A stretch of DNA of 44,174 bases from an uncultured archaeon (GCA_964388035.1 CAYLZE010000036.1:1-44174), one strand, 5' to 3'; counted from the first letter of the stretch, positions 7,260 through 38,708 are shown. Program-made: numbers and translations. Notes: generated from the sequence alone by a model not told the origin.

Positions 7260-8672
7260 ATGATTGATAAAGGCATTGAAAATGCTCAAATTACCACTTA
7301 TGGTAAATGCTTTTTAATGCAATTTCCGGAAGATAAATATAGACCTCCCATTTTACATCTTCAAGGAAATCCCTACGAAGTGGGTAAGGCACATGGATAT
7401 CTTTACTCGGATAAAATAACTCAATTTTTTGCCGAATATTTCACTCCCGTTGCTGCGATGTTTGGTGGATGGCAGCCTGAATCCGGAATATCGCCATCGT
7501 TAGAACAAATGAATGCCGGTAAAGAGGTAATTTTTTCCCTTGCAGAAAATAGATGCATACCCGCGATAAAAGCGCAAGAAGCTGATTATTGGAGGGAAAT
7601 TGAAGGGCTATACGATGGTTTGAAAGAAGCAGGTTCTCCTCTGCAATGGAACGATATTTTAATGGGAAATTGCATGCCTGAAGACGCTTGGATGCTACGG
7701 GATCAAGATTGTAGTAATTTTGCCGCTTGGGATAAAGCAACGGGGAACGGCAAGCTCATACATGGCGTTAACATGGATTTTGAAACATTTGATGTCATGC
7801 AGTATCATGTAAGTATCATGGTTGCCAAACCGGAAAAGGGATATTCATTTTTAGGGATTCATTCCATGGGGAATATCTCTCCGAATTCCTGGATTAATGA
7901 AAAGGGATTGAGCTATGGCGAAATGACGTGTAATTCCGTCAAGGTGAAATGGCCTCAAATTCCCCATTTAATGCATGGTAGGAAAATTGCCCAAGAAGCT
8001 TCTACGATAAAAGAAGCTTATTCAATTTTGGAGAATACGGGGGGCACGACGGGATGGGCTAACTTGATTGCTGAAGGAATGGGGAATAATCCGCACGCGG
8101 CAGACATTGAATTAGTAGGTAAAGATCTTACGATTAGATATGAAGATCCCGAATTCAAGAATGTAATTTGGGTTACCAATATTTTCACGTGCTATCCAGG
8201 ATTTCAAGGGTATGAAGGAATTAACATGATCCCCGGTCAGGTATCTTATTGGATGCAATTAGATGAAAAAGACATGCCTGATTATATTGATCCCTCCATT
8301 ACATTGGAAGATGTTAGCACTCTGGAAAAATGGCGAGAAAACGTTATTTGTCCGAGATATGAACGCTATGCTGTCATGTTGAAAAAAGCACATGGTAAAA
8401 TTGATATTGAGAAAGCAATTGAAATTCAGAGCGATAAAGTTTTAACCTTAGATCGAATGCCTGGAAAAATTCAACTGACTCCTCCTTGCAAGCATTTCTT
8501 AGGGTATGAGAGACCTATTATTAGTAATAGGGTCAGTAGTGTATGGTCTTGTATATTCATTCCCCAAGATGGGGACGCATGGATTGCTGCTGGAGATATT
8601 CCTGCGCAAAATGGGAATTTTTGGAAGATTAATCTTTCTGCTCATTTAGAATTGATGGAAAAGCATAATTAA
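7260..8672 (+). CDS. C45 family autoproteolytic Ntn-hydrolase (acyl-CoA:6-APA acyltransferase-like)
   Basis: Alpha-chain motif GNPYEVGKAHG, internal nucleophile D|CSNFAAW, HGVNMDF, INEKGL and VTN. Confidence 0.8.
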   Translation: MIDKGIENAQITTYGKCFLMQFPEDKYRPPILHLQGNPYEVGKAHGYLYSDKITQFFAEYFTPVAAMFGGWQPESGISPSLEQMNAGKEVIFSLAENRCIPAIKAQEADYWREIEGLYDGLKEAGSPLQWNDILMGNCMPEDAWMLRDQDCSNFAAWDKATGNGKLIHGVNMDFETFDVMQYHVSIMVAKPEKGYSFLGIHSMGNISPNSWINEKGLSYGEMTCNSVKVKWPQIPHLMHGRKIAQEASTIKEAYSILENTGGTTGWANLIAEGMGNNPHAADIELVGKDLTIRYEDPEFKNVIWVTNIFTCYPGFQGYEGINMIPGQVSYWMQLDEKDMPDYIDPSITLEDVSTLEKWRENVICPRYERYAVMLKKAHGKIDIEKAIEIQSDKVLTLDRMPGKIQLTPPCKHFLGYERPIISNRVSSVWSCIFIPQDGDAWIAAGDIPAQNGNFWKINLSAHLELMEKHN

Positions 8673-8708
8673 TTAACTTAAAAAAAAGAATTAACAAGGT
8701 GTTTAAAA

Positions 8709-9968
8709 ATAATCACTAAATCTAATTTTCCAGATTATCCAATAGAACGTATTAGAGCACAATTTCCGGCATTGAAACGAGAATTAAACGGAAAAAAAGT
8801 GGTATATTTGGATGGACCATCGGGATCTCAAATGGTAGGATCTGCAATTGAAGCCATTCATGATTACATGTCTAATGGATGTGCAAATGTTCACGGTAAG
8901 TTTCCCACGAGTATTGAAACGGAAAAACATATTGCGGAAGCAAGGCAAGCAATTGCGGATCTGGTGGGAGCTAGACCAGAAGAAGTTATATTTGGTCCAA
9001 ACACGACCACGTTAGCATTTTCCATTTCCAGGGCTATAAGTCGCACGTGGAAAAAAGGGGATGAGATTGTTGTAACTGAATTAGATCACCGGGCTAATGT
9101 GGACTCATGGCGATTAGCGGCTGAGGATAAAGAAGCTAAAATACGATGGATAAAGCTCGATACTGAAAATTTAACTTTAAAATATGATGAATTGGAAGAA
9201 TTAATCAATAATAATACTAAAGTGTTAGCAGTAGGGTTAGCATCCAACGGAGTCGGAACTATAAATGACGTTAAAACTATATCCTCCTTGGCTAAAAATG
9301 TAAGTGCTATAGTTGTGGTAGATGCCGTTCACGCCACACCACATATTTCCATTGATCGTGATGCTTTAGGAGCTGACATCATTTTTTGTTCAGCTTACAA
9401 GTTTTTTGGTCCCTATATAGGCTGTGCCATAGTGAAAAAATCCTTGTTAGAATCACTCAAACCATATAAGGTAATTTCTTCACCAGAATACGTTCCAGAT
9501 AATTTTGAAACAGGCACTCAAAATCATGCGGGATTGGCCGCAATGAAGCCCGTTATCGATTTCATTGCAAGTCTTGGGGAAGGACAAAATAGAAGAGAAA
9601 AAATTGTAAATGCTTTTACGAGGATTGAAAAGTATGAGAATTCTCTAGCTAGCAAGATTAGATCCGCATTAAAGAAAATGCCTGAAGTAACGTTATTACA
9701 AGCCCCCGATCACGTGCCTAAAACCCCAACTATTTCATTTCGAATTAAAAGTATCCCCCCTTCAGAAGCATGCAAGTTTCTGTGTGATCATCATTCCATA
9801 TTTGTTGGAGATGGTCATTTTTATGCCCAAACCATAGGAGATATCCTGGATATAAACAAATCTGGAGGGTGGGTTCGCGCTGGAATTGGCCCCTACAATA
9901 CCGAAGAAGAAATGGATCGATTCATTCAAGGTATCCAAGATTTATTAGAAAATTATCCCAAGAAATAA
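8709..9968 (+). CDS. Cysteine desulfurase-like class V PLP aminotransferase (subfamily lacking the persulfide Cys); probable ATA start
   Basis: IRAQFPAL lies upstream of the 8772 TTG; YLDGPSGSQ, LDHRAN, VDAVH, PLP Lys in SAYKF, FETGT; GDGHFYA replaces RxGHHCA. Confidence 0.85.
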   Translation: MITKSNFPDYPIERIRAQFPALKRELNGKKVVYLDGPSGSQMVGSAIEAIHDYMSNGCANVHGKFPTSIETEKHIAEARQAIADLVGARPEEVIFGPNTTTLAFSISRAISRTWKKGDEIVVTELDHRANVDSWRLAAEDKEAKIRWIKLDTENLTLKYDELEELINNNTKVLAVGLASNGVGTINDVKTISSLAKNVSAIVVVDAVHATPHISIDRDALGADIIFCSAYKFFGPYIGCAIVKKSLLESLKPYKVISSPEYVPDNFETGTQNHAGLAAMKPVIDFIASLGEGQNRREKIVNAFTRIEKYENSLASKIRSALKKMPEVTLLQAPDHVPKTPTISFRIKSIPPSEACKFLCDHHSIFVGDGHFYAQTIGDILDINKSGGWVRAGIGPYNTEEEMDRFIQGIQDLLENYPKK

Positions 9969-10011
9969 CTACCAATCAATGAAGACTATAAATAAAGAAA
10001 GGTGAAATATA

Positions 10012-10767
10012 ATTCCATTCTTCCTTCATGATAAGAAAAAAGTATTTTACGATATTAAAGAAGCCGAAAATCAAAAAGCAATAATATTCCTTCATGGGTC
10101 TGGAAGTACCTCTAAAGTTTGGAAACATCAACTTGCTCTTGACGTTGATTATAATCTAATAGCGTTAGATTTGCCTTCTCATGCGAAATCAGAAGAATTT
10201 ACTAATTTGACCATGGATTTATTCGTGGATGTGGTTCAAAAATGCATTACCACGTTGCAACTCAATGAAATCATTTTATGTGGACATGCTTTAGGGGGTG
10301 CAATTACCCAATCCTTCTATTTAAAGTATCCTGAAAAGGTATCGGCATTAATTTTAATCGATACGGGAGCAAAATTAAGGGTTTCTCCCTATATCCTTAA
10401 TACGGTAAAAATTAATTACCAAGAATTTTTAGACTCCCTTTCAGTTGGTATTTTTTATAGAAAAACATCCCCCCAGATTGTTGACGAATATGTTAGGCAA
10501 TCAATGGATATAAAACCTGAAGTGGCGTATTCCGATTTTAAGATTTGTGATAACTTCGATGCTATAGGACAAATTAGCTCTATTAAAGTTCCTACCTTGA
10601 TTATCTGCGGGAAAGAGGATAAAATCGCTCCCTTGAAGTATTCCATGTTTTTTAACGAGAAGATTGTAAATTCAAAGCTCATAGTTATTCCCAAAGCTTC
10701 TCACATGGTAATGCTTGAGCAACCCCAAGAAGTCAATAAAGCTATCGAAGAATTTTTAAAAAAATGA
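10012..10767 (+). CDS. Alpha/beta hydrolase with Ala at the nucleophile position; probable ATT start
   Basis: Frame upstream of 10171 encodes PFFLHDKKKVFY...IIFLHGSG...W...IALDLPSH; elbow GHALGG; GKED and ASHM triad residues. Confidence 0.85.
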   Translation: MPFFLHDKKKVFYDIKEAENQKAIIFLHGSGSTSKVWKHQLALDVDYNLIALDLPSHAKSEEFTNLTMDLFVDVVQKCITTLQLNEIILCGHALGGAITQSFYLKYPEKVSALILIDTGAKLRVSPYILNTVKINYQEFLDSLSVGIFYRKTSPQIVDEYVRQSMDIKPEVAYSDFKICDNFDAIGQISSIKVPTLIICGKEDKIAPLKYSMFFNEKIVNSKLIVIPKASHMVMLEQPQEVNKAIEEFLKK

Positions 10768-10834
10768 AAGGTAAATTTATTTTATTTTACTCCAATAGGA
10801 AAATTTTCGGGAATCCAATCAGGAATTCAGATCA

Positions 10835-12343
10835 TTATACCCGACTTAGCGCTCCAATCCTAGTCATCTTTCTTGTCATGGTATCTCCCGTAGTTTTACG
10901 CCAATTCATTAATCGGTTCTTTAAATCACTTAAGATCTCGCTGTGATTGGAATCATTAATCAAATTCTGTAATTCAAAAGGATCTTCTTCAAGGTTATAT
11001 AACTCATCCATGTCTCTCTCATTATATACATATTTATAATTATCATGAACAATTAGTCGTCCTAAGTGAACATGCACGTGGCCATGGGTCTCAACCATGA
11101 GATCTTCTCGCCAATCTCCCTTTTCTTGTTTACTCAGTGGTAATAAACTTTTCCCATGAACTTTCTTATCGAATTGAGTACCCGCAAAATCCAATATAGT
11201 AGGACCAATATCTAAATTACTAACAAACTTATCTGATTGGATTCCGGCTTCTATTTTATCTGGAAATCGCATTGTCATGGGAATTCTAACCATCTCCTCC
11301 GGCATGTAGCTATCTTTATCAAAATGCCCGCCATGGCAAGCCACACCATCTCCGTGATCCGTGGTCCATATCACGGCGGTATTTTCACTAAGTCCTGTTT
11401 CTTCCAAGGTTTGTAAGATTAATCCTCCCGCTTGATCCACCATAGATATCTGTCCGTAATGAAATGCCAACACCTTCTGCCAAGTAGACCAGGGTAATGG
11501 ATTAGGATAAATCAATTTTCCTCGAAATGTAGTGGGATAATTAATATCGTGCTTGTAAACTTCTGGCTTGTTTTCAAGATCATCTCTAAAATTAGGATAT
11601 AGTGGAATTTCCTTAGGATCATAAAGTTCATAAAATTCTGGCGTGATATAATAGGGTTGGTGAGGCCCCCAAAAATCGACTCTTAAATGGAAGGGCTGCG
11701 AATTGTCCGAACGAGCAATTTCCCATAGTTTTTCGCAAGCTAATTTTGCCAAGAAAAAAGCCTCATGGGACTCTTTTGGCGTGGTCATGAGGCCTACCGC
11801 ATGTTCACTTAACATTTCGTCCTCAGGACGATGGAGTTTTCCGGAAATTAGTCCCTTTTCTCTTGTTACAGGCCATTCTGGATTGAGAAAACTGTGCTCA
11901 ATTTGAACTTCAAAACTGGGAAGATTATTCTTTTTTAAATATTCTCGATATTCCCGAGTAAGGTAAGGATTACCATAATCAGGATAATTAAATCCTTCAC
12001 ATCCGTGATCGTATGCTGTACCTGGTCCAGAATGCCACTTTCCGTAGTAAAAATTCTCATATCCTTCCCTTAGTAATTTTTCAAAATAAGTCTGTCTATC
12101 AAAAGGGTAAAAAGAATTGTTGGTCAATTCCCCATGATCATGAGGAAATAATCCCGTTAGCATTGTGCGCCGTGCTGGAGCACATAAAGGGCAGGCTGTA
12201 TACGCTCGCGCGAATTCTATCCCCTGAGATGCTAATTTTTTAAAAAAAGGACGTTGTATCTTAGGACCCCCCGCCATTGTTCCATGCCCATAATAAGCTT
12301 GATGGTCATTTAAAAGGAATAAAATATTCGTTTTATCCGTCAT
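10835..12343 (-). CDS. Cys-type formylglycine-dependent sulfatase (S1)
   Basis: NILFLLNDH, CAPAR..MLTG, GKWH, GPHQPY, TDHGD and ELYNL..DP.E. Confidence 0.93.
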   Translation of the reverse strand: MTDKTNILFLLNDHQAYYGHGTMAGGPKIQRPFFKKLASQGIEFARAYTACPLCAPARRTMLTGLFPHDHGELTNNSFYPFDRQTYFEKLLREGYENFYYGKWHSGPGTAYDHGCEGFNYPDYGNPYLTREYREYLKKNNLPSFEVQIEHSFLNPEWPVTREKGLISGKLHRPEDEMLSEHAVGLMTTPKESHEAFFLAKLACEKLWEIARSDNSQPFHLRVDFWGPHQPYYITPEFYELYDPKEIPLYPNFRDDLENKPEVYKHDINYPTTFRGKLIYPNPLPWSTWQKVLAFHYGQISMVDQAGGLILQTLEETGLSENTAVIWTTDHGDGVACHGGHFDKDSYMPEEMVRIPMTMRFPDKIEAGIQSDKFVSNLDIGPTILDFAGTQFDKKVHGKSLLPLSKQEKGDWREDLMVETHGHVHVHLGRLIVHDNYKYVYNERDMDELYNLEEDPFELQNLINDSNHSEILSDLKNRLMNWRKTTGDTMTRKMTRIGALSRV

Positions 12344-12473
12344 AGTTAATTAATAGAAGGAAGAGTCAGAAATAAATCATTTTAAAACAAATTATGATTT
12401 TTTTCCGTGTTAAAAGATAATCTATTTTTTTTAATTATTCAATTCATATCATCATTTACATTATTAATATGAT

Positions 12474-13469
12474 TTAGAATTCGGGGCCAGTATTCGTATA
12501 AATAGTTCCAAAATTCATTTTTCTAACAGGAGACTCCTTCATTTCAACCCAATCTTTATCTTCCCACCGAAATATTCTATTTGAATGTGGATTAGGAGAT
12601 CTAATATTGATATCTTCATCAATAGTTCCTAAAAATCGCCAGAAGGAAGCTCTACTCGCACGAGATCCTCCATGGTGCCAATGTCCGGGCAATTCAATTT
12701 CAAATCGCCAAGTATCCATATCATAATTATAAATTAAGTGTTGCTTTTTTACAGGACCCTTATAAGTACCTGACCGGGGATTATAAAAGCTTTCATTCGT
12801 ATTCCAGCCTCCTATAATGTGTAGTTCATCAAAATATTTATCCCCCGAACCATCTGTAGTAGGAATAGGGCACGGTTTCATGACTTCCCACTCATCCGTT
12901 TTAGGATTATATCTTTGGTTTAGGGCTCCCTCATAAGTATTTTGTTCACCAATAGTTTGGGTATTTCCTGTCGTAAAGTATAACCATCCCCCATGATAGG
13001 AAGGAAGCGGAAATGATTGTGAAAAAGGAGCATCCTTTACTTCAGTCTTCCAAGTATCCTTTAATAAATCATACTTCCAATTCCAATTCACGCGATTATA
13101 AGGTCCTTTTATATTATCCCCTCCAAATAGAAAGATATAGCGATTGACGATTACGGGATAATATTTTCCTAACTTACTGCGAGGTTCAGGCATCTTCTCA
13201 TAAAGTTCCCACGAATCTTCTTGAATGTCATACACTTGTACATGATCGCAACAGCCCGAATGAGGTTTGGTTTTTCCTCCAAAACAAAAAATTTTATTTT
13301 CAAAAAATGTCCATCCTGCTCCTTGAACATTGATTGGCATGGGAGTTAATTCTCCATTTTCACTGCTATACCATTTGTCTTTATCAATATTATAAACTGT
13401 CACGTCTCCCACACAATACTTATTTTCTAGCTTTCCGCCAATTGCCCATAAAAATTCACCTTCATTCAT
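12474..13469 (-). CDS. Kelch-repeat beta-propeller protein (NanM/galactose oxidase-like fold)
   Basis: Repeated hhhGG...Y(D/N)....W units (WAIGG, FCFGG, FLFGG, HIIGG; YNIDKDKW, YDIQEDSW, YNPKTDEW). Confidence 0.85.
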   Translation of the reverse strand: MNEGEFLWAIGGKLENKYCVGDVTVYNIDKDKWYSSENGELTPMPINVQGAGWTFFENKIFCFGGKTKPHSGCCDHVQVYDIQEDSWELYEKMPEPRSKLGKYYPVIVNRYIFLFGGDNIKGPYNRVNWNWKYDLLKDTWKTEVKDAPFSQSFPLPSYHGGWLYFTTGNTQTIGEQNTYEGALNQRYNPKTDEWEVMKPCPIPTTDGSGDKYFDELHIIGGWNTNESFYNPRSGTYKGPVKKQHLIYNYDMDTWRFEIELPGHWHHGGSRASRASFWRFLGTIDEDINIRSPNPHSNRIFRWEDKDWVEMKESPVRKMNFGTIYTNTGPEF

Positions 13470-13609
13470 GACTATTTTCCTTAAAATTAATGAAAATTCA
13501 CGGATTTTGATTCGTGGAAGTAATATAAAATAATCTTAATTAATTAAATCATAAAAAAGTAATTGGTCATATTTGAAAAAAAATTTAGATTACTTTTTTT
13601 AAAAGCTAA

Positions 13610-14830
13610 TTATTGTTCCTTACGCAAGCAGCAGTTCTTATACTTTTTGCCGCTTCCACAAGGACAAGGATCATTCCTTCCAACTTTACTTAAATTATTC
13701 TCTACTGGAACAGTAATATTGCCTTCGAACCTGATTTTCTTTGCTAAAGACTCAAAAAATGGAAGAGAATAAGCATAGAATTTTTTCCAGCCCTTACATA
13801 AGACACTTAAGGTTTTAGAATAACTATTACTCCCTACTCGAAATTTTTGGCAATCTCCATGACATAATGAGAGAAAAGGACATGTTTTACATGCCTCATT
13901 GAATGCGAATTTTTGCTCGCCAAATTGACGGTAAACGGGGGAATTCATGAGCTGTTCCCAGCTATCTGTCATGATATTTCCAAGCTTTAAGTCATTTTCC
14001 ACAAAAAAGTCACAGGGATAGACCCCTCCATCATATTCTACTACAAAATATTGACGGCAATCTTTATTCATGTAACACACGTTATATCTCCCATATACAA
14101 GATATTCCAGAATTGAATCAAAATGTCGTATCGAAACGCGATATACATCTTTTTTTCTCCATTCATCAAAAAGATCGCATAAGAAAGTACCCCACCCTTC
14201 CCCATTTATGGAATATGGAAATAACTTGTTGCTTTTCTCGTCAAATTCCACGCAAGGAATGTATTGTTGAAAGTAAAATCCATTCTTAACTAAATAGTTA
14301 TAAACCAGTTGTGCTTTAGAAACATTCTTGCTATTTATTAATATTAAAATATTAAATTCCACTTGATTGTTCTTTAAATTTTCGATACCTCGCATTACTA
14401 ATTCATGGGTTTCCTTTTGCCGTATCGTTTTTCGATAAAAATCGTGAATTTGGGGAGGACCATCAAGACTAACACCCACTAAAAATTTATATTTTCCAAA
14501 AAATTGTGCCATCTCATCTGAAATCAGAGTTGCATTTGTCTGGAGTCCATTGCTGACTCGTGAACCAGGAGCGCCATATTTCTGTTGTAATTCTACTACC
14601 TTTTGAAAGAATTTCAGTCCCATTAATGTTGGCTCCCCTCCTTGCCAACCAAAAGCGTAGTGTCCTCCTTGATCAGTGCTCATATAGCTTGATATCATTT
14701 TCTCGAGAACTTCATTTGTCATTCTCGGTCTAGATTCTTTATTCTTTAAATGATCAATGTAAAAGCAATATTCGCAGCGAAGATTGCAATCCCCATTGGC
14801 TGGCTTGATTAAAAGTGAAAACGGATTCAT
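13610..14830 (-). CDS. Anaerobic sulfatase maturase (anSME, radical SAM/SPASM) with C-terminal SEC-C motif
   Basis: [28 protein letters not shown] cysteines (VYPCDF, CKTC...CHGDC) and [19 protein letters not shown]. Confidence 0.93.
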
Positions 14831-15113
14831 TGAGAAAAATATTCAATTTATTTTAAGATGTTCTAATAAATTTATATAAAGGGCAATTTTTAAAAATTAA
14901 AAAATTTATTCTTAGGATAAATATACCTTATTGATTCAAAATCTTAAAGAGTATAAATATTATAATTTTTAAGGATTTCATATAAGAAAAAGAATTAGCG
15001 AAACGTGTCAAAAAAAGCAAGGGCTTTAATATAGCTTTAATATTCAGCTTGCGAAAAATTGCCCACGATTCTTATTTTATTTTTAAATTTATTCATTCCT
15101 CTACTGATTCCTT

Positions 15114-15157
15114 TTAATCCTTTCTAGTTATCTAGAAGTTTTAAAAGAAAGGATTAA
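15114..15157. repeat. Inverted repeat TTAATCCTTTCT-N20-AGAAAGGATTAA in the divergent anSME/tsaA intergenic region
   Basis: 12-bp perfect arms at 15114-15125 and 15146-15157. Confidence 0.5.
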
Positions 15158-15302
15158 GAAGTAAAGCCATGTATTAATGAAAATTGAATTATTCGAATTT
15201 CAGAGAGATTTTATAGAATGATTCTTTATTTATTCTAGTAATACTAGATTATAAAATAGTATGAATCCCTTATTTATAATAAAATCTTAGCAATATATCA
15301 AA

Positions 15303-15908
15303 ATGACAGAATATATCATAAAACCCGTTGGAATTGTAAAAAATCTTGCAGAAAAGGAAGTTTTAAAATTCTCAAATAATGATATAAAATTAGATGTTGA
15401 AGTTGCTGTAAACCAAGGAAAAAATTTAATAAGGTCTCAGATCATCATAAATAAAGAATATATCGAATGCTTAGATGGAATCGAAGATTTTTCTCATATT
15501 ATCGTAAGTTTTTGGACCCATAAAGTGCCCGAGAGTGCCCGCCAAATTAAAAAAGTACACCCTGCTGGAATGAAGGACATGCCAATGAAGGGGATTTTCG
15601 CTACTAGATCTCCTGTAAGACCTAATCCGATTTGCAAAACTACCGTAAAGCTGCTTGAAAGAAATGGAGCAACGCTGTTGGTTGAGGGATTGGATGCTAT
15701 AAACAATTCCCCCGTAATTGATATTAAACCACATTTGCCATTTTATGATTCCCCTCTTAACGTGAGATTGGCAGGATGGATGTATGATTTAATGAATAGA
15801 TTAAAGGAAATAACGAAAAGTTCAGATGCACAAGATTCTAAAAATCCCTATTCAACGGATATTGCTGCTCATCCTTGTTTAAATCATGATGACCAAAAGA
15901 GAAAATAA
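15303..15908 (+). CDS. tsaA: tRNA (N6-threonylcarbamoyladenosine(37)-N6)-methyltransferase TrmO/TsaA family
   Basis: LDGIEDFSHII, GIFATRSPVRPNPI and GLDAINNSPVIDIKP. Confidence 0.88.
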   Translation: MTEYIIKPVGIVKNLAEKEVLKFSNNDIKLDVEVAVNQGKNLIRSQIIINKEYIECLDGIEDFSHIIVSFWTHKVPESARQIKKVHPAGMKDMPMKGIFATRSPVRPNPICKTTVKLLERNGATLLVEGLDAINNSPVIDIKPHLPFYDSPLNVRLAGWMYDLMNRLKEITKSSDAQDSKNPYSTDIAAHPCLNHDDQKRK

Positions 15909-16111
15909 CACCTTAGAAATTTTTTTTAATTTTTCTTTTGAGATTGATATAATTTCTTCTATCTCTATCGAATTAATTGTTCTTATTCAACTTTTTTTCA
16001 TTGAATAATTATTCAAAATATTTAATAAGGAAGGGAATAATGATCTACATAGAGATTGATTTTGAATAAATATTCATAAAAACAATATATTGCAAAAATA
16101 AATGATTTAAC

Positions 16112-16456
16112 ATGAATATAAGTGATTTAAATCAGTATGGAATTACTAGTGCTAGCAAGGGGAAATTAATAATTGATATCTCTTCTGATTGGTGTGGACC
16201 CTGTAAATTGCTTTCCCCTATCTTAGAAAGCTTTCGGGATAAAGGCATGATAGAACTAATTCAAATTAATATCGATGAAAATAGGGAATTAGGTCAGAAA
16301 TTAAATATCTATGCGATACCAACTTTATATTTTTTTAAAGATGGAGAGCTTTTAGATAAAGACATTAAGGTTCAAGGTCAGACATTGGTAAATAAAGGAG
16401 TAATGGTCGGTGCAACTGGAGAGCTGGTCCTTAAGGAAATTATTGAGCAAATGTAA
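16112..16456 (+). CDS. trxA: Thioredoxin
   Basis: WCGPC active site and cis-Pro motif AIPT. Confidence 0.9.
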   Translation: MNISDLNQYGITSASKGKLIIDISSDWCGPCKLLSPILESFRDKGMIELIQINIDENRELGQKLNIYAIPTLYFFKDGELLDKDIKVQGQTLVNKGVMVGATGELVLKEIIEQM

Positions 16457-16543
16457 TTTTTCATAATTATAAAGTAATGAGATGATAAGTTAATCCATTT
16501 CAATAATTTTAAATCATAAATCAAAAAATGAATGTGATGCATA

Positions 16544-17092
16544 ATGGAAAAGAAAAAAGCACTCTTCATTATAGGATCTCCAAGAAAAGACGGAAACACA
16601 GCTTTCTTAACAGATAAACTTATAGATTCTTTAAATGATAAATATATAATTGAAAGGATATTTCTAACAGATTATAATATCAGCCCATGTAAGGAATGTT
16701 ATTACTGCATGGATAAAGATGAGTGCTCGATTGACGATGATATGCAACAATTATATATCAAACTAAACGAAAGCAAATTAATAATATTATCAAGTCCCAT
16801 ATTCATGGGAGGAGTTTCTGCGAGAATGAAAGCTTTTATGGAAAGAACCTGGCATTTAAGAAGAGGACAGTTAATGGGTAAAACGGGAAGTTACATTTTA
16901 GTTGGGAGACGCGATTTTGGTTCGGGAATTAATGAGATGGAAGAGTATCTTTCTAGATTAAAATTAAATAAAGTTCCAGGTGTTTTAGGATTTGGTTTCC
17001 GTAAAGGAGATGTTTCACAAGACGATGAAGCGTTAAAAAGTATTGATCGTCTTTGTAAGCAAATCCTTAATTTCAATTATAATATAAATTAA
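16544..17092 (+). CDS. Flavodoxin-family iron-sulfur flavoprotein (NADPH-dependent FMN reductase-like)
   Basis: GSPRKDGNT, CKECYYC.....C cluster motif, DDM and SPIF. Confidence 0.88.
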   Translation: MEKKKALFIIGSPRKDGNTAFLTDKLIDSLNDKYIIERIFLTDYNISPCKECYYCMDKDECSIDDDMQQLYIKLNESKLIILSSPIFMGGVSARMKAFMERTWHLRRGQLMGKTGSYILVGRRDFGSGINEMEEYLSRLKLNKVPGVLGFGFRKGDVSQDDEALKSIDRLCKQILNFNYNIN

Positions 17093-17122
17093 AGTATCAA
17101 AGAATTACGAGGTGATTAATTT

Positions 17123-17320
17123 TTGAGTTATGGTGATAGAAGAGGTAGAGGAGGTCAAGGTGGTAGAGGGGGTCAAGGTAGAATGGGAGGGCCTTATAAA
17201 GCAGGTCCGGGTGGTTCATGTAAATGCCCTAATTGTGGTAATATCGTTTCTCATCAAGTTGGAACCCCATGTTACCAACTTAAGTGTCCAAAATGTGGCA
17301 GCTTGATGGTAAGACAATAG
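17123..17320 (+). CDS. Small Gly/Arg-rich, double zinc-knuckle protein
   Basis: SD GAGGTGA at 17109-17115 and TTG start; GRGGQG x2, then CKCPNCG...H..G.PC...CPKCG..M.R. Confidence 0.75.
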   Translation: MSYGDRRGRGGQGGRGGQGRMGGPYKAGPGGSCKCPNCGNIVSHQVGTPCYQLKCPKCGSLMVRQ

Positions 17321-17465
17321 TTCTGATATGTAAATGAAAGAAACATCTCATTTATTAACTTATTCATTTTACTGGGGTATAATAAGTCATGAACATCTCT
17401 GATCAAAAAAGAGATAGCAATGTTTTAGATTTTTTAATTTCAGTTAATTAATATGGGGAATTTAT

Positions 17466-18098
17466 TTGGCACGAACAGAACCTTTTGATAAATATTTAAA
17501 AGATTATGAAAATTGGTTCGAAAAAAAAGAACATGTATATAAATCCGAGCTGAAAGCAGTAGGGCATTTTATTCCGAAAGATAAAAAAGGAGTTGAAATT
17601 GGAATTGGTTCGGGTCGTTTTGCTTTACCCTTTAATATTAATATAGGCGTTGAACCCTCAACCACAATGAGAAATTATTCAATTAAGTATGGATTGAAAG
17701 TGTACGATGGTATCGCCGAAAACCTGCCATTAAAGGATGCTAATTATGATTTTGCTTTAATGGTAACTACTATTTGTTTTATAGATGATGTAAAAAAAGC
17801 ATTTCTAGAAGTTAAAAGAATTTTAAAGTCCGGTGGTGCTTTTATTATTGGCTTTATTGATAAAAATAGCTCAATTGGAAAAATTTATGAAAGATTAAAG
17901 TAGAAAAATAAGTTCTATCGTATCGCTACCTTATACTCAATTGAAGATGTATTGAATTTCTTGAAGGAAACTAATTTTAAGAAAATTCAAATTATTCAGA
18001 CTATCTTTTGAAATCTTAGTGAAATTAAACAAGTTCAACAGTTTCGGGAAGGTCATGGGGAAGGGAGCTTTTTGGTTGTTAAAGCTGAGAAAGAATAA
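17466..18098 (+). pseudogene. Class I SAM-dependent methyltransferase interrupted by in-frame TAG (17901-17903) and TGA (18009-18011)
   Basis: EIGIGSGRF, GVEPS, AENLP, YDFALMVTTICF; the same frame continues KNKFY..AT.YS...QTIF*...EGHGEGSFLVVKAEKE to TAA at 18096-18098. Confidence 0.75.
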
Positions 18099-18234
18099 AA
18101 AAAAATTATAAATTATAAATTAATTGAGATTTTTCTTATGAAGTTCTATTCATAATCAATATATACTTAAAATTCCCTATCATTAATGTAATTTGAATAT
18201 ATAAAATGACATCATGTTAAGTTGGTGATTGTAT

Positions 18235-18396
18235 ATTACAAATAAGTTTAAATTTAGAATTCAAGCAATAGAAAACTTAAAAGAAAATCAATACTATTGT
18301 TGTTCAAATGGGGAATTTTTATTTCATGATCGTGCAGAATTTATCGATTTTTATGATGAAGATGATGATGATTTGCCAACAACATATGATCTATAA
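18235..18396 (+). CDS. Unannotated small acidic protein (53 aa from ATT; 55 aa from TTG 18229)
   Basis: Open frame TNKFKFRIQAIENLKENQYYCCSNGEFLFHDRAEFIDFYDEDDDDLPTTYDL*; SD GGTGA at 18224-18228; TATA-like TATATAAA at 18198-18205. Confidence 0.45.
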   Translation: MTNKFKFRIQAIENLKENQYYCCSNGEFLFHDRAEFIDFYDEDDDDLPTTYDL

Positions 18397-18444
18397 AATT
18401 TAAAAGATTGAGACGTTAGAATAGTCGATTTAACGTGAAAGGAG

Positions 18445-19548
18445 TCAATTTTCGATTTGAGAGAAACTGCCCACAATTCGTAATTTATTTTCAAATTTAT
18501 TCATTTCTGTTATGATACCTTTTAATCCCGAGCCGTCATGATATAACATCCGATCTAGTTTCATGGTTAATTCTCCACTTTCTCCAGGTTTTAAAGGATT
18601 ACCCTCCATGAATTTAAACGGAGAAGATTTTAGTTCTACAATGGCATGATATTGAATATTATCATTGGGTGAAATAAATCCTTGTTTAGGTTTATAAAAA
18701 GGGTTGATCTTAACCATTGCTTCTATCTGTTTTTCTACTTTGAAAATTCCCGGAGTAGCAAGCAGGTTATCACGGCTAATTTCACTAACGGATAAATTTC
18801 CTTTTAATGCCAAACCGACTCGATCTCCCTCATTCGCTTCCTTGAAATCCCTATCATTTTTTTGGATGCTTCGTATTATCACCTTCTTTGAAGGGCCATC
18901 AAATCCTGTTAATTCTAACATCTGATTTGCTTTAATTGTTCCATTCATTATTATACCGAGGATTACAGTCCCAATTCCTTTAACAGGGAAGGCATGATCG
19001 ATTAGAACTTTAGTATATGGTTTATTCTCCTTTTCGGAGGGAGATTTAGTTGCTAATTCTACAATAAATTCCTTTATATCGTCGATATCTTCCTTTGTCT
19101 TAATTTTTAAAATGCTTGAATTGCTTAAACTCGTGGTATTGAGCACATTCTTTAATTTTTTCTCAAGATCACTTAATTTCCATTCATTTTTTTCGGTGAT
19201 CCCTGAAATTGCAATAAGGGATTTACTGTTCCTTTCTTGATGAAACATGTCCATTCCTACTAAAATTTCTCCAACTGACGCATTTAACCCTTTTTCCACA
19301 TCAATGACGAGCACGTGGATTTTAGTGAGAGTTAAAATTTGTAAAAACGGTTTTATTTTATCAGGATAGTCTACGGGAGTGATCGCGCAGAAAATCTGAC
19401 CCAAGCTTGCATCCAATCTATTAAAAAAAAGCATGTCCGATTTAGTTCCGGGAGCACCGAGTCCTTGTCCCATGAGATTGACTAATTCAAAATTATCACC
19501 GAAAATTCCGATAGTTAATGTAATCTCATTTAATGGCTCTTGTTCCAT
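18445..19548 (-). CDS. SelB/EF-Tu/aIF2gamma-like protein (MM1309-type) with a degenerate G domain
   Basis: Domain II motifs IDHAFPVKGIGTVILG, IRSIQ..D and GDRVGLALK; N-terminal LG..GT.SD and YP...K features; no P-loop. Confidence 0.8.
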   Translation of the reverse strand: MEQEPLNEITLTIGIFGDNFELVNLMGQGLGAPGTKSDMLFFNRLDASLGQIFCAITPVDYPDKIKPFLQILTLTKIHVLVIDVEKGLNASVGEILVGMDMFHQERNSKSLIAISGITEKNEWKLSDLEKKLKNVLNTTSLSNSSILKIKTKEDIDDIKEFIVELATKSPSEKENKPYTKVLIDHAFPVKGIGTVILGIIMNGTIKANQMLELTGFDGPSKKVIIRSIQKNDRDFKEANEGDRVGLALKGNLSVSEISRDNLLATPGIFKVEKQIEAMVKINPFYKPKQGFISPNDNIQYHAIVELKSSPFKFMEGNPLKPGESGELTMKLDRMLYHDGSGLKGIITEMNKFENKLRIVGSFSQIEN

Positions 19549-19951
19549 TAGGATAATAATTTAACAAAGAACTAAAGCTTAATGATATATATACTTCATT
19601 TTAAAGCCATGGTAAGATAGCTTTTGAAAATCACTTTACCAAATTATTTATATTAAGCAAGGGGCGATCGAATACCATTTAAAATATAAAATGGGTTTGC
19701 TTCTTAAAGAAAGAAAAAGTTTAGAGAAAATAAAAAACCAAGCAATGCTCAAGAGTTATTTACTTAACTCGCATTACAATTGAAATGCAAAAAAGAATGA
19801 TATGCTTTTACATTCTTTTTTTTAATTTCTTTTCTATTGAAATAACTTTTCATTTATTACTTATTCTTTTTGAATATACAGCAAATGCGCTTTAAAAGAA
19901 AATTGAGAAAGAGTTTGTTTATTGTAAAGAAATCAACATGTTGGAATCATG

Positions 19952-20815
19952 TCATGCCTTATTGATACTCCCAAATACTTCCATCCGATTTTTCACTACA
20001 TCTTTAAAAGTTTCTCGAGACCATTCAAAAATATCTTGATAGTAAACCTCGTTACCTTTTGCTTGTAGCTTTTCTTTAACTTTTAACGCTACGGCATGGG
20101 AAACATTCGAAAAATAATTAATCTTTGAAATCCACCCTTTTTCCACGCATTTCCTAAAATCCTGATCAGAAACTCCAGAACCACCATGTAAAACTAGGGG
20201 TACCTCCGTGATTTCATGGATCGCTTGGAGACGTTCGAAATCAATTTTCGGCTCCTTTAGGCAAACACCATGTGATGTCCCAATCGAAATGGCCAACGCA
20301 TCTACATTGGTTTCAGCGACAAATTTTTCGACTAGTAAGGGATCTGTATAAACCCTTTCCTCTATTTTATTTCCCATTCTATCAGGATTTCCTTCTTCCA
20401 TGGAAACATGGCCCAACTCAGCTTCAACCGAGATACCAAGGATATGAGCATACTCCACTATTTTTTTGGTATTTTCAGCATTTTTTTCAAAGGGAAGGGA
20501 AGAACCATCATACATGACAGCTGGTACTCCTAACTTCATGGCTTTTATGTTTGCACTATAACCACCATGATCTAGAATTACCGCAATGGGGGCACTCGAT
20601 TTTCTTGCTACTTTTAACATGATGGGAAAAATAATATCCATGGGTATAAATCTCTCATGACCCTCCCCGAAAGCCATGATCACGGGAGAGTTTGCTTCTT
20701 CTGCAGCTTGTATCACGGCATTGATACTTTGAAGGTCAAACACATTAAAACTACCAACCCCATAGTGCTCGGACTGAGCTTTTTTAAGCATTATTTTAAA
20801 AGACACTAATGTCAT
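19952..20815 (-). CDS. Class II fructose/tagatose-bisphosphate aldolase
   Basis: GSFNV, ILDHG, MYDGS, VEAELG, SIGTSHG and LVLHGGSG. Confidence 0.92.
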   Translation of the reverse strand: MTLVSFKIMLKKAQSEHYGVGSFNVFDLQSINAVIQAAEEANSPVIMAFGEGHERFIPMDIIFPIMLKVARKSSAPIAVILDHGGYSANIKAMKLGVPAVMYDGSSLPFEKNAENTKKIVEYAHILGISVEAELGHVSMEEGNPDRMGNKIEERVYTDPLLVEKFVAETNVDALAISIGTSHGVCLKEPKIDFERLQAIHEITEVPLVLHGGSGVSDQDFRKCVEKGWISKINYFSNVSHAVALKVKEKLQAKGNEVYYQDIFEWSRETFKDVVKNRMEVFGSINKA

Positions 20816-21066
20816 GATTATACATCTTTATTTATTATTGTAAGAAATTCTTAAAAATATTTGAAATTTATTAAACAATCCTTTTCTCTTAGTGGATTCA
20901 AGAATTCTATAAGATAATGATATATTTGCTATATTACACATACTTTTTAAAAACAAAATAAATGCCATAATAATTAATGATATATCAGAAAAGCATAAAA
21001 ATTAAAAAGAGTTAATTTAGTATTAAAACATCCCTTGCTCTCTGTTGTATTGAAAGAAATCAGAAA

Positions 21067-21519
21067 CTATGTTTTTAAATTTAATATTTCTTTACTTTTT
21101 CTCTCAAGTATTTTGATTTGCATTACAATCTGCCCCCAACCCCCACATTTTATCCCGACATCAAAACAGCTTGTTCGATTAAATCTCATTTGGTTTGGAT
21201 CGATTCCTGCATATAACAATTCATTAACAGCAAAAATCAATTTATCTAATTCTGATAATGCATAGATGCAAATTTTCTTTGGAGAGAGTTTTGTTAATAA
21301 ATTCCCTGCCCCATCAAAATAAAATTTATCGCCAACTTCATGTTGGCTATTACATCCATGAGATTCAATTACTTCCACGACAATGGTTTTTCCCAATAAT
21401 TCCAAGGATTTTGCCAAAATATCCTTATTCCTAGGATTATTAATGAATGTATCTAATTCCCCTTCAGAATAATTCATTCTTTGTCGTAATTCGCTTTTTT
21501 TTTTCTTGCTTAATTCCAT
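21067..21519 (-). CDS. Conserved Cys-rich protein (TIGR04076-like, possible Fe-S/metal binding)
   Basis: GCNSQHEVGDKFYFD...ICIYAL...CFDVG..CGGWG; SD GGAGG; 13 nt downstream of the Fe-S gene. Confidence 0.6.
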   Translation of the reverse strand: MELSKKKKSELRQRMNYSEGELDTFINNPRNKDILAKSLELLGKTIVVEVIESHGCNSQHEVGDKFYFDGAGNLLTKLSPKKICIYALSELDKLIFAVNELLYAGIDPNQMRFNRTSCFDVGIKCGGWGQIVMQIKILERKSKEILNLKT

Positions 21520-21532
21520 TTCAACTCCCTCC

Positions 21533-22618
21533 TCAAGTGGATTCTTTTCTAATTTGATTCTTTTTGTCTATGATCTTTATGTATGTTTCTATTGTATTTT
21601 TTGGCGGAACAGTCACTTTTTCTTTTTTGATCAGCTTAATTGCATCATTTGAACAATTTATAACGCATATTCCACATCCTATACATTTTCCTAAATTTAC
21701 TTCACTAGATTCTTCCCCAATTTCAATTGCATCCAATGGGCAAGCATCTTTACAATTACCACAAGCAATGCAAGATTCATTATCAATTTCTGCATAATAG
21801 TTTGTTGCAAAGAATCGAGCGGGATCTTTGAATCGTTTCTGATTGGATATTACTTCACAACAACAACTACAGCAGTTACAGACTACAAAGGGTTTCTGTG
21901 AATTTGAGGGAGAAGGAATTAATCCTACCTCTTCAAATTTTGTGGCTAATTCATAGGCTTCTTCTTTCCTTATGACTCTTGCAAGCCCCCTTTGAAGAAA
22001 AAATCTTGCTCCGGAATCAAAGGTCATGCAAGTTTCTCTTAAATTGGTCTTCTTGCAAGGATCATTAACTAAATCATGAGCTTTTCGACAAATACAGTCC
22101 ATAATTCCGATAATAGATGCATTTTCGATGAAAGTACGCAATTGATCATAAGATGCTATTGACATCTCAGGAGATACTGCTTTATTTACCGGTATCGTTC
22201 TGAGCTGAGGAATTCCCGTAAGATTAAATTCTTCAAAATATCCTTCTTTGAAGTATTGAAGAATATTAGAAACAAGGTTTGGTGTTAACCGTCCTAATTG
22301 ATATTCATACATCCCTACCACGAACATCGCATTAGAATATGTTTTTTCACCCTTACCCTCCCCCATCATAATAATACCCTTTTCCCACATTTTGTTTAAA
22401 ATACTTTCAAGATTTTCCAGGCCAATTCCCTCATTTTTTAACTTTCGATGTATTTGCTTTATTTTCTGTGGAAAAAAAGAGAGTTTCATTGCGATGTTTG
22501 CTTCTTCTGGAGTGAATAGCTCCTTAATAATTTTAAGCTCCACCTTTGATTGAGTTGGGGGAAAACCTACTGGGAGATTATTCAAATGGGCTCTTAATTC
22601 TTCATAAATCTCAGTAAT
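21533..22618 (-). CDS. 4Fe-4S dicluster protein with N-terminal winged-helix-like region; probable ATT start
   Basis: CICR, C...C, VCNCCSCCC, CIACGNCKDACP and CIGCGICVINC; in-frame TEIYEELRAHL precedes the 22585 TTG. Confidence 0.85.
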   Translation of the reverse strand: MTEIYEELRAHLNNLPVGFPPTQSKVELKIIKELFTPEEANIAMKLSFFPQKIKQIHRKLKNEGIGLENLESILNKMWEKGIIMMGEGKGEKTYSNAMFVVGMYEYQLGRLTPNLVSNILQYFKEGYFEEFNLTGIPQLRTIPVNKAVSPEMSIASYDQLRTFIENASIIGIMDCICRKAHDLVNDPCKKTNLRETCMTFDSGARFFLQRGLARVIRKEEAYELATKFEEVGLIPSPSNSQKPFVVCNCCSCCCEVISNQKRFKDPARFFATNYYAEIDNESCIACGNCKDACPLDAIEIGEESSEVNLGKCIGCGICVINCSNDAIKLIKKEKVTVPPKNTIETYIKIIDKKNQIRKEST

Positions 22619-23029
22619 TTTAATCTCTCCTTTATTATATTTTTATAATGGAAAAATAGATAAGGTCTTTATAAACTATAATCGATCATTTACAACTAAA
22701 ATTAGGTTGTATTGAGAATTTTTCCTTATCATAAATCGTAAAATACTGTGTTCCTTAATCTCTTACCTTAATCTTAATACTTAAAACCCTGGAGTAAGGG
22801 ATCTCAAACAAGAAGTTAACAAAAATCATTACGGAAATTTCTTTTTACTTAGTCTTTAAATTGCGGATTATTAAATTTAAGGGAGTGAGTTAATTTAAAT
22901 TACTTCTAAAAAAAAAATATATAAAAATAAGACCCCAAGCTTAAATAAAAAATATAATGTTTTTACTTTAAAAAGCAATTCAAGCACTCATATTTAGAAT
23001 TAACAATTGAAAAGGAATTAGTATATATC

Positions 23030-35522: not shown

Positions 35523-38708
<3,186 letters not shown>

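Follow-up and report, generated by a model that had tools for sequence, protein, structure and literature searches.

ATT and ATA as probable start codons behind Shine-Dalgarno motifs in an Asgard (Loki-type) archaeon and its family

Candidate start codons of three genes in the window

The window analysed in this study is the complete contig C36 (CAYLZE010000036.1; 44,174 bases) of a metagenome bin from an uncultured archaeon (GCA_964388035.1, here G000; 5.47 Mb in 211 contigs, 33% GC). Four eukaryote-like actin genes were found in the genome (top match to PF00022 at 423 bits), which is consistent with an Asgard (Loki-type) assignment, and the region was shown to be present in DNA contigs from several salt-marsh metagenome runs, four of which (DNA, 2–6x depth) were used as independent per-run contigs. 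Three genes of the window, predicted to encode a class-V aminotransferase, an alpha/beta hydrolase and a 4Fe-4S dicluster protein (genes 1, 2, and 3; Table 1), have conserved N-termini that are not reached from any in-frame canonical start (ATG, GTG or TTG), and in each of them an in-frame ATA or ATT was found 7 or 8 nt behind a Shine-Dalgarno (SD) motif. The original prediction, made from the sequence of the window, had pointed to this pattern and had read it as SD-anchored, relaxed selection of start codons in the lineage. For the three genes the pattern was borne out: the earliest canonical starts (TTG at 8772, 10171 and 22585) all lie behind conserved motifs, and the coordinates and spacings that had been given (GGTG+7, GGTG+7 and GGAG+8) were correct.

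The open frame of gene 1 extends from 8682 to 9968, directly after a TAA (8679–8681). TTG 8772 is located downstream of a conserved IRxQFP motif that is N-terminal in homologues, and the GGTG at 8698–8701 places ATA 8709 inside the genome-wide spacer peak described below; the ATC at 8712, directly after this ATA, is a lesser alternative start. The closest homologue, from a metagenome-assembled genome of Desulfosporosinus, showed 55% identity, and its ATG aligns three codons after ATA 8709. No match to gene 1 at an E value of 1e-60 or better was found in 24 relatives, and the gene, now with an ATA start, may have been acquired horizontally from Bacillota.

Gene 2 begins 43 nt after the end of gene 1 on the same strand, and its ATT is separated from the GGTG at 10001–10004 by a 7-nt spacer. 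Translation from TTG 10171 would cost 53 residues, including the strand and the HG motif of the oxyanion hole. The orthologues compared were all from genomes of the same family, with alignments that extend back almost to the ATT, a few residues short of it at most. Opposite ATT 10012, six orthologues have ATG (ATG-CCA-TTT compared to ATT-CCA-TTC in the window), four orthologues of other genera have ATT, and one has ATT-ATC. Each of the ATT copies contained (A/T)GGTG exactly 7 nt upstream, whereas none of the ATG copies did, and across five genera the ATT form was shown to remain an open frame with unchanged SD geometry.

Gene 3 is the weakest of the three cases, with just 11 residues at stake. 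Its earliest canonical start, TTG 22585, is located 11 codons downstream of the ATT and behind a conserved EIY motif. Homologues have an ATG start 5–7 codons before the corresponding (D/E)(I/V)Y motif and 3–5 codons upstream of the aligned position. The SD of this gene, GGAG, was found 8–11 nt before ATG starts throughout the genome.

Table 1. Location of candidate and canonical starts, their SD motifs and the corresponding genes in the window.
Feature	Position	Strand	Remarks
SD AAGGTG of gene 1	8696..8701	+	7 nt before ATA 8709; spacer inside genome-wide 7–8 nt peak
Gene 1, predicted class-V aminotransferase (cysteine desulfurase-like), from ATA 8709, 419 codons	8709..9968	+	Aminotran_5, E 6e-68
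SD AGGTGA of gene 2	10000..10005	+	its TGA (10003–10005) is the in-frame stop closing the frame upstream
Gene 2, predicted alpha/beta hydrolase, from ATT 10012, 251 codons	10012..10767	+	Abhydrolase_1/6 from open-frame residue 25
Canonical comparator, SD TGTGAT, TGTG + 7 nt, ATG 16544	16533..16546	+	geometry confirmed
Canonical comparator, 8-nt SD GAGGTGAT, GGTG + 8 nt, TTG 17123	17109..17125	+	geometry confirmed
Ambiguous fourth case, GGTG 18224–18227, in-frame TTG 18229, ATT 18235, 55-codon frame	18224..18396	+	GGTG to ATT 7 nt
Gene 3, predicted 4Fe-4S dicluster protein, from ATT 22618, 361 codons	21533..22618	-	homologues align from open-frame residue 10–11, directly after ATT
SD GGAG of gene 3	22627..22630	-	8 nt before ATT 22618

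Two canonical starts that had been put forward as comparators, ATG 16544 and TTG 17123, were confirmed to show the same geometry as the three candidates (Table 1). The frame behind TTG 17123 (17123–17320, + strand; 66 codons) was found to be rich in RGG/Gly at its N-terminus and to contain two CxxC pairs, with a weak Pfam match to a zinc ribbon. A fourth candidate proposed in the original prediction, ATT 18235, stood only in part: the GGTG 7 nt ahead of it is real, but the frame is not free of canonical starts, as the in-frame TTG 18229 follows directly after a TGA and 1 nt behind the same GGTG. The 55-codon frame is weakly conserved (E about 2e-5, two relatives, with an in-frame GTG or ATG). 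This candidate is therefore left undecided as an ambiguous rather than a clean case.

Occurrence of ATT and ATA behind SD motifs in the genome and its relatives

The SD motifs of this genome were found to be pieces of GGAGGTGAT, with GGTG occurring 5–11 nt before canonical starts and a peak at 7–8 nt. A 16S gene was not found in this bin, and the genome of a second genus of the same family (G024, of which 1.2 Mb was used) was likewise without an assembled 16S. The anti-SD was read from an order-level relative, in which the 3′ tail of the 16S (GATCACCTCC) is the complement of GGAGGTGAT and is complementary to the AAGGTG of gene 1.

All genome-wide tests of start codons were made without a gene caller. 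The main test covered in-frame codons located at least seven codons upstream of the first canonical start in open reading frames (ORFs) of at least 150 codons, and scored SD matches of at least 5 nt at a spacer of 7–8 nt. Such matches preceded 27 of 1168 ATT codons (p 3e-10) and 16 of 839 ATA codons (p 2e-5), compared to ~0.5% at control spacers. These two were the only significantly enriched codons (OR 3.8 and p 2e-12 when combined); ACG (3/130) and CTG (2/87) were marginal, and ATC fell outside the twelve most enriched codons in the same test. A frame control in ORFs of at least 200 codons (spacers 5–11) showed an SD before 3.3% of in-frame ATT codons vs. 0.7–1.0% of out-of-frame ATT codons. 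The spacer profile of ATT and ATA peaked at 7–8 nt like that of canonical starts, but was narrower (78% vs. 55% at 7–8 nt, p 0.002).

The coding log-likelihood between the candidate codon and the first canonical start was 0.13–0.15 per codon, compared to 0.15 after ATG starts, and the 15 codons upstream of the candidates scored as non-coding (-0.96; upstream of ATG starts -1.08). This switch in score indicates a boundary between coding and non-coding sequence at the candidate codons. Residue 2 after ATT or ATA was Ser in 15 of 43 cases, and Ser is also the commonest residue 2 after ATG starts. As a separate observation, the base after an SD-led ATT was G in only 1 of 27 cases, compared to 37% for ATG starts and 15% for in-frame ATT codons that lack an SD, the depletion relative to the 15% not being significant. 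The scarcity of G may avoid an out-of-frame TTG one base downstream (e.g., at 10012–10015).

The excess of SD-led ATT and ATA over the out-of-frame rate corresponded to ~105 genes among 3253 frames of at least 200 codons (3.2%), which is a lower bound. An unsupervised start model fitted by expectation-maximization (EM) over all 61 sense codons gave ATG 73%, TTG 8.3%, GTG 4.0%, ATA 2.3%, and ATT 2.1%. Its total for ATT and ATA (4.4%) is a rough figure from a noisy model, which leaves the total frequency uncertain (3% to perhaps 10%). Within 150 "extension genes" defined by coding potential alone, SD-led ATT or ATA was found in 46% vs. ~30% for decoy codons, a difference too noisy to fix the dependence on SD. 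In the window, 3 of 33 ORFs of at least 150 codons need an ATT or ATA start, which is compatible with a genome rate of 3–4% (binomial p 0.09–0.18). In the second genus, an enrichment of the same size was detected (ATT/ATA 14/491 vs. other codons 19/3383; OR 5.2, p 2e-5).

Further support was obtained from domain boundaries. Pfam was scanned with the 20 candidates that had the longest gap between the ATT or ATA and the first canonical start. A Pfam domain was found to begin upstream of the canonical start in 10 of these, often within 2–4 residues of the ATT or ATA; AFOR_N and PCNA_N begin at residue 3 and ApbA at residue 4, and the others were ATP-synt_D, Aldo_ket_red, CitMHS, ECH_1, Creatinase_N, DUF362, and SIR2. 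The remaining 10 candidates were uninformative and none of them contradicted the upstream start.

The PCNA gene of this genome reads AGGTG-N7-ATT-TCA-TTT, whereas at this codon all 10 family orthologues contain ATG-(AGT/TCG/ACT)-TTT, without an SD. When hydrolase and PCNA copies were pooled, (A/T)GGTG at exactly 7 nt was present in 6 of 6 ATT copies and in 0 of 16 ATG copies (Fisher p 1e-5, the sequences being kin and not independent). Comparison with the 1.2 Mb of the other genus showed more exchanges between ATG and ATT, ATA or ATC at aligned starts, and one ATT-ATT start with GGAGGT was conserved in both genera. The original prediction had proposed a genome-wide scan of the codons at SD+7/8 and a comparison of orthologue start codons, and both support it: SD-led ATT and ATA occur above chance, their SD enrichment at 7–8 nt is exclusive to these two codons and is replicated in a second genus, and ATG and ATT replace each other at the same codon, with ATT also present in other genera and without decay. 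Thus, the three genes of the window and at least ~100 genes of the genome (~3%), including the essential PCNA, very probably start at an ATT or ATA located 7–8 nt after an SD, as judged from the sequence.

Two other features of the window were recorded. An S-adenosylmethionine (SAM)-methyltransferase frame (Methyltransf_11; 17448–18011, + strand) stops at a TAG (17901–17903), and the same frame runs 35 codons further to a TGA (18009–18011). The TAG could be a nonsense mutation, a site of readthrough or the end of a short form; pyrrolysine was rejected as the reason for it, as no PylS above the cut-off was found in the genome. On the minus strand, 18445–19548 encodes a 367-residue protein that matches just EF-Tu domain 2, with an N-terminal region that gave no match to the GTPase domain (an EF-Tu/SelB-like paralogue).

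Initiation machinery and alternative explanations

Just 22 tRNAs were recovered from the entire bin, among them a single tRNA-Met(CAT) (aragorn record '31-4', 36337–36435). This tRNA shows initiator features, namely A1:U72 and an anticodon stem with three G-C pairs, as judged by eye, and it contains a 23-nt intron after position 37. Loss of initiator-tRNA identity elements was ruled out as a cause, since this tRNA looks canonical. A changed genetic code was ruled out as well: ATT and ATA occur commonly inside genes (4.9% and 2.7% of coding codons, respectively), where they align with Ile in homologues, and the unusual role is confined to the start.

The reading that we favor, with a probability of roughly 85%, is that ATT, ATA and, rarely, ATC function as start codons in this archaeon and throughout its family. 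It draws on sequence geometry, genome statistics, the exchange of start codons between orthologues and domain boundaries, and it would imply that translation takes place from these codons, presumably with Met as first residue. The SD would pair with the 3′ tail of the 16S and thereby set the codon located 7–8 nt downstream in the P site, in line with the prepositioning of the archaeal pre-initiation complex near the start codon by the SD (PMC6237735). The initiator Met-tRNA (anticodon CAU) would then pair with the first two bases, and the mismatch at the third base would be tolerated. Such a weak codon would work solely with a good SD at the optimal distance, which would explain why GGTG was found at exactly 7 nt in the ATT copies and in none of the ATG copies. 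Mutation biased toward AT (33% GC) would turn ATG into ATT or ATA, and such changes would be tolerated or compensated.

The stringency of start selection might in turn involve aIF1. In Saccharolobus solfataricus, an AUU mRNA is bound by 30S complexes that lack aIF1 and is rejected once the factor is present (PMC4705826). The aIF1 (SUI1) frame of this genome (C78:3054–3377; L244) contains no canonical start before the CPxC zinc knuckle, and an ATT is the third codon after the stop. Among the further aIF1 loci compared (L245–L249), that of the second genus has ATT at the same aligned codon, likewise with no canonical start before CPxC, and ATG, TTG or ATA was found in other families. The aIF1 gene itself thus appears to start at ATT here, and it is plausible that such a start would provide a feedback that holds start-codon stringency low; the pattern, which is a correlation only, fits a feedback like that of infC or eIF1.

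Three other explanations were weighed against working ATT and ATA starts. That the start codons have been lost, with genes that are decaying or are made truncated from the next TTG and with upstream conserved codons that are untranslated remnants, is considered very unlikely. In-frame TTGs are indeed available downstream in all three genes (8772, 10171, and 22585), gene 3 would shed just 11 residues by using its TTG, and gene 1 looks horizontally acquired, its best match being bacterial. However, the frames of genes 1–3 are open and full-length with complete Pfam matches, use of TTG 10171 would remove the oxyanion-hole motif, and five genera retain the hydrolase ATT form as an open frame with identical SD geometry. 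The same pattern in the essential PCNA and in A-type ATPase subunit D also argues against decay, and random decay does not predict an in-frame ATT or ATA specifically 7–8 nt behind an SD. There is still less reason to think that the starts are real but are used by another mechanism, such as U-to-G editing of the third base in the RNA, the use of Ile as first residue, or reinitiation after the upstream gene that does not depend on an SD. To our knowledge no such editing system exists, and none is indicated here. The present data are compatible with more than one tRNA, although a canonical initiator tRNA is present; and the short distance between genes 1 and 2 would suit reinitiation, but most candidates in the genome (e.g., PCNA) are not closely preceded by the end of a gene. 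The strict spacing favors ordinary SD-directed placement in the P site.

An assembly or sequencing artefact, in which a misread G makes an ATG appear as ATT or ATA, or in which a GTG start inside GGTG is masked by an indel, appears the least probable of the three. The bin is a metagenome assembly in 211 contigs with low depth per run (2–6x), and in genes 1 and 2 the GTG inside GGTG does lie 10 nt upstream in the +1 frame. Against this, separately assembled contigs were identical to the window over 8634–8941 (Logan contig, run X3) and 9790–10122 (X4), and no substitution or indel was found at the three sites in the contigs of the four runs, with explicit cover for sites 1 and 2 and cover at the bin level for site 3. 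ATT at the aligned codon was also found in genomes of other genera that had been assembled independently. In the orthologues with ATT, a stop follows immediately in the GTG frame (e.g., GTG TGA in L007), and a frameshifted GTG start is not conserved; GTG inside GGTG as the true start, by an indel or a +1 shift, was ruled out by the orthologue frames and the per-run contigs. The A/T-rich spacer was also considered as the TATA box of a leaderless mRNA and was rejected, since gene 2 lacks an in-frame start at the distance that this would require, and the ATGs of orthologues align with the ATT.

Several observations weigh against the use of ATT and ATA as starts, or limit its extent. The EM start model gave 3.5% for the decoy AAA, which is above ATA or ATT, and a canonical-looking initiator tRNA offers no structural reason for relaxed selection. 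Gene 1 is without a close archaeal orthologue, and the choice between ATA 8709 and ATC 8712 as its exact start is made by SD spacing only; TTG 22585 would be usable by gene 3 at the cost of 11 conserved residues. In a closed genome from another family of the order no significant enrichment was found in the 1.2 Mb used, a comparison of low power (5/412 vs. 29/3406, OR 1.4, p 0.30), and the difference between the closed genome and the pooled family was itself not significant (p 0.11). Of the relaxed, SD-anchored selection that had been proposed for the lineage, the part that concerns the family is thus supported, and extension to the order is not. At the level of sequence the trait can be regarded as established for the family (at least five genera), and it may not be general in the order or may be weaker in the other family.

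A more far-reaching version is somewhat doubtful. It would hold that the whole Asgard (Loki-type) family has a heritably lowered stringency, in which the fixed 7–8 nt SD replaces full codon pairing, AUU and AUA are routine in 3–10% of genes including essential ones, and starts flip between AUG without an SD and AUU or AUA with an SD over short evolutionary times.

Significance and comparison with known systems

Gene finders limited to ATG, GTG, and TTG would truncate or overlook N-terminal regions in several per cent of the proteins encoded by these genomes. PCNA, an ATPase subunit, HdrA, and a sirtuin would be affected here, and tubulin in a case from the literature (see below). Such N-terminal errors would be passed on to structure prediction, to phylogenies of eukaryotic signature proteins, and to expression constructs. 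A lineage in which at least 3% of genes have ATT or ATA starts with a compensating SD would also be a natural experiment on how the core shared by archaea and eukaryotes (aIF1, aIF1A, and aIF2) sets stringency. The lineage belongs to the group most closely related to eukaryotes, in which near-cognate initiation and feedback through eIF1 are well established.

AUU and AUA starts are textbook rarities, and pcnB is one of the bacterial genes that have an AUU start behind an SD. Another is infC of E. coli, which encodes IF3 and for which an AUU start behind an SD and autocontrol are reported in PMC4705826 (citing Butler et al., 1987). The starts described here resemble those of infC and pcnB in that a near-cognate AUU lies a few bases behind an SD and would be read by the initiator tRNA, its use being set by the strictness of a fidelity factor. 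However, bacteria have one or two such regulatory exceptions per genome, whereas at least ~100 genes (at least 3%) of all functional classes would be concerned here, with archaeal aIF1, aIF1A, and aIF2. No regulatory role was seen for the three genes of the window, and the feature of infC of being the gene of a fidelity factor does not apply to them.

Within Asgard archaea, a "rare ATT start codon" was reported for a tubulin gene in a genome of the Heimdall group (PMC13394414). The case resembles the genes described here: the protein as deposited lacked part of its N-terminus, and an upstream ATT restored the first beta-strand and had a ribosome-binding site at a plausible distance. That report concerns a single gene, whereas here statistics over a whole genome were replicated in the family. 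A genome-wide description of ATT or ATA starts in Asgard archaea was not found in the searchable literature, in which this anecdotal tubulin case was the sole mention. The present case would thus represent a known mechanism that is used more often and more broadly than has been described for any archaeon.

In eukaryotes, weak starts are likewise used according to the level of a SUI1-family factor, and the gene of the factor has a weak start itself (PMC4705826). Eukaryotic initiation differs in that it relies on scanning and the Kozak context without an SD, in that the near-cognate starts are mostly CUG, GUG, and ACG, and in that efficiencies in yeast are well below 1% (PMC4705826). The closest comparison is with the archaea S. 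solfataricus (PMC4705826) and Pyrococcus abyssi (PMC6237735), which share the same core (30S, aIF1, aIF1A, aIF2, and Met-tRNAi) and the class of SD-led mRNAs; for P. abyssi, both prepositioning by the SD and proofreading by aIF1 were described (PMC6237735). In those systems AUU is excluded by aIF1, whereas in the family studied here AUU and AUA appear to pass when a strong SD is located 7–8 nt away.

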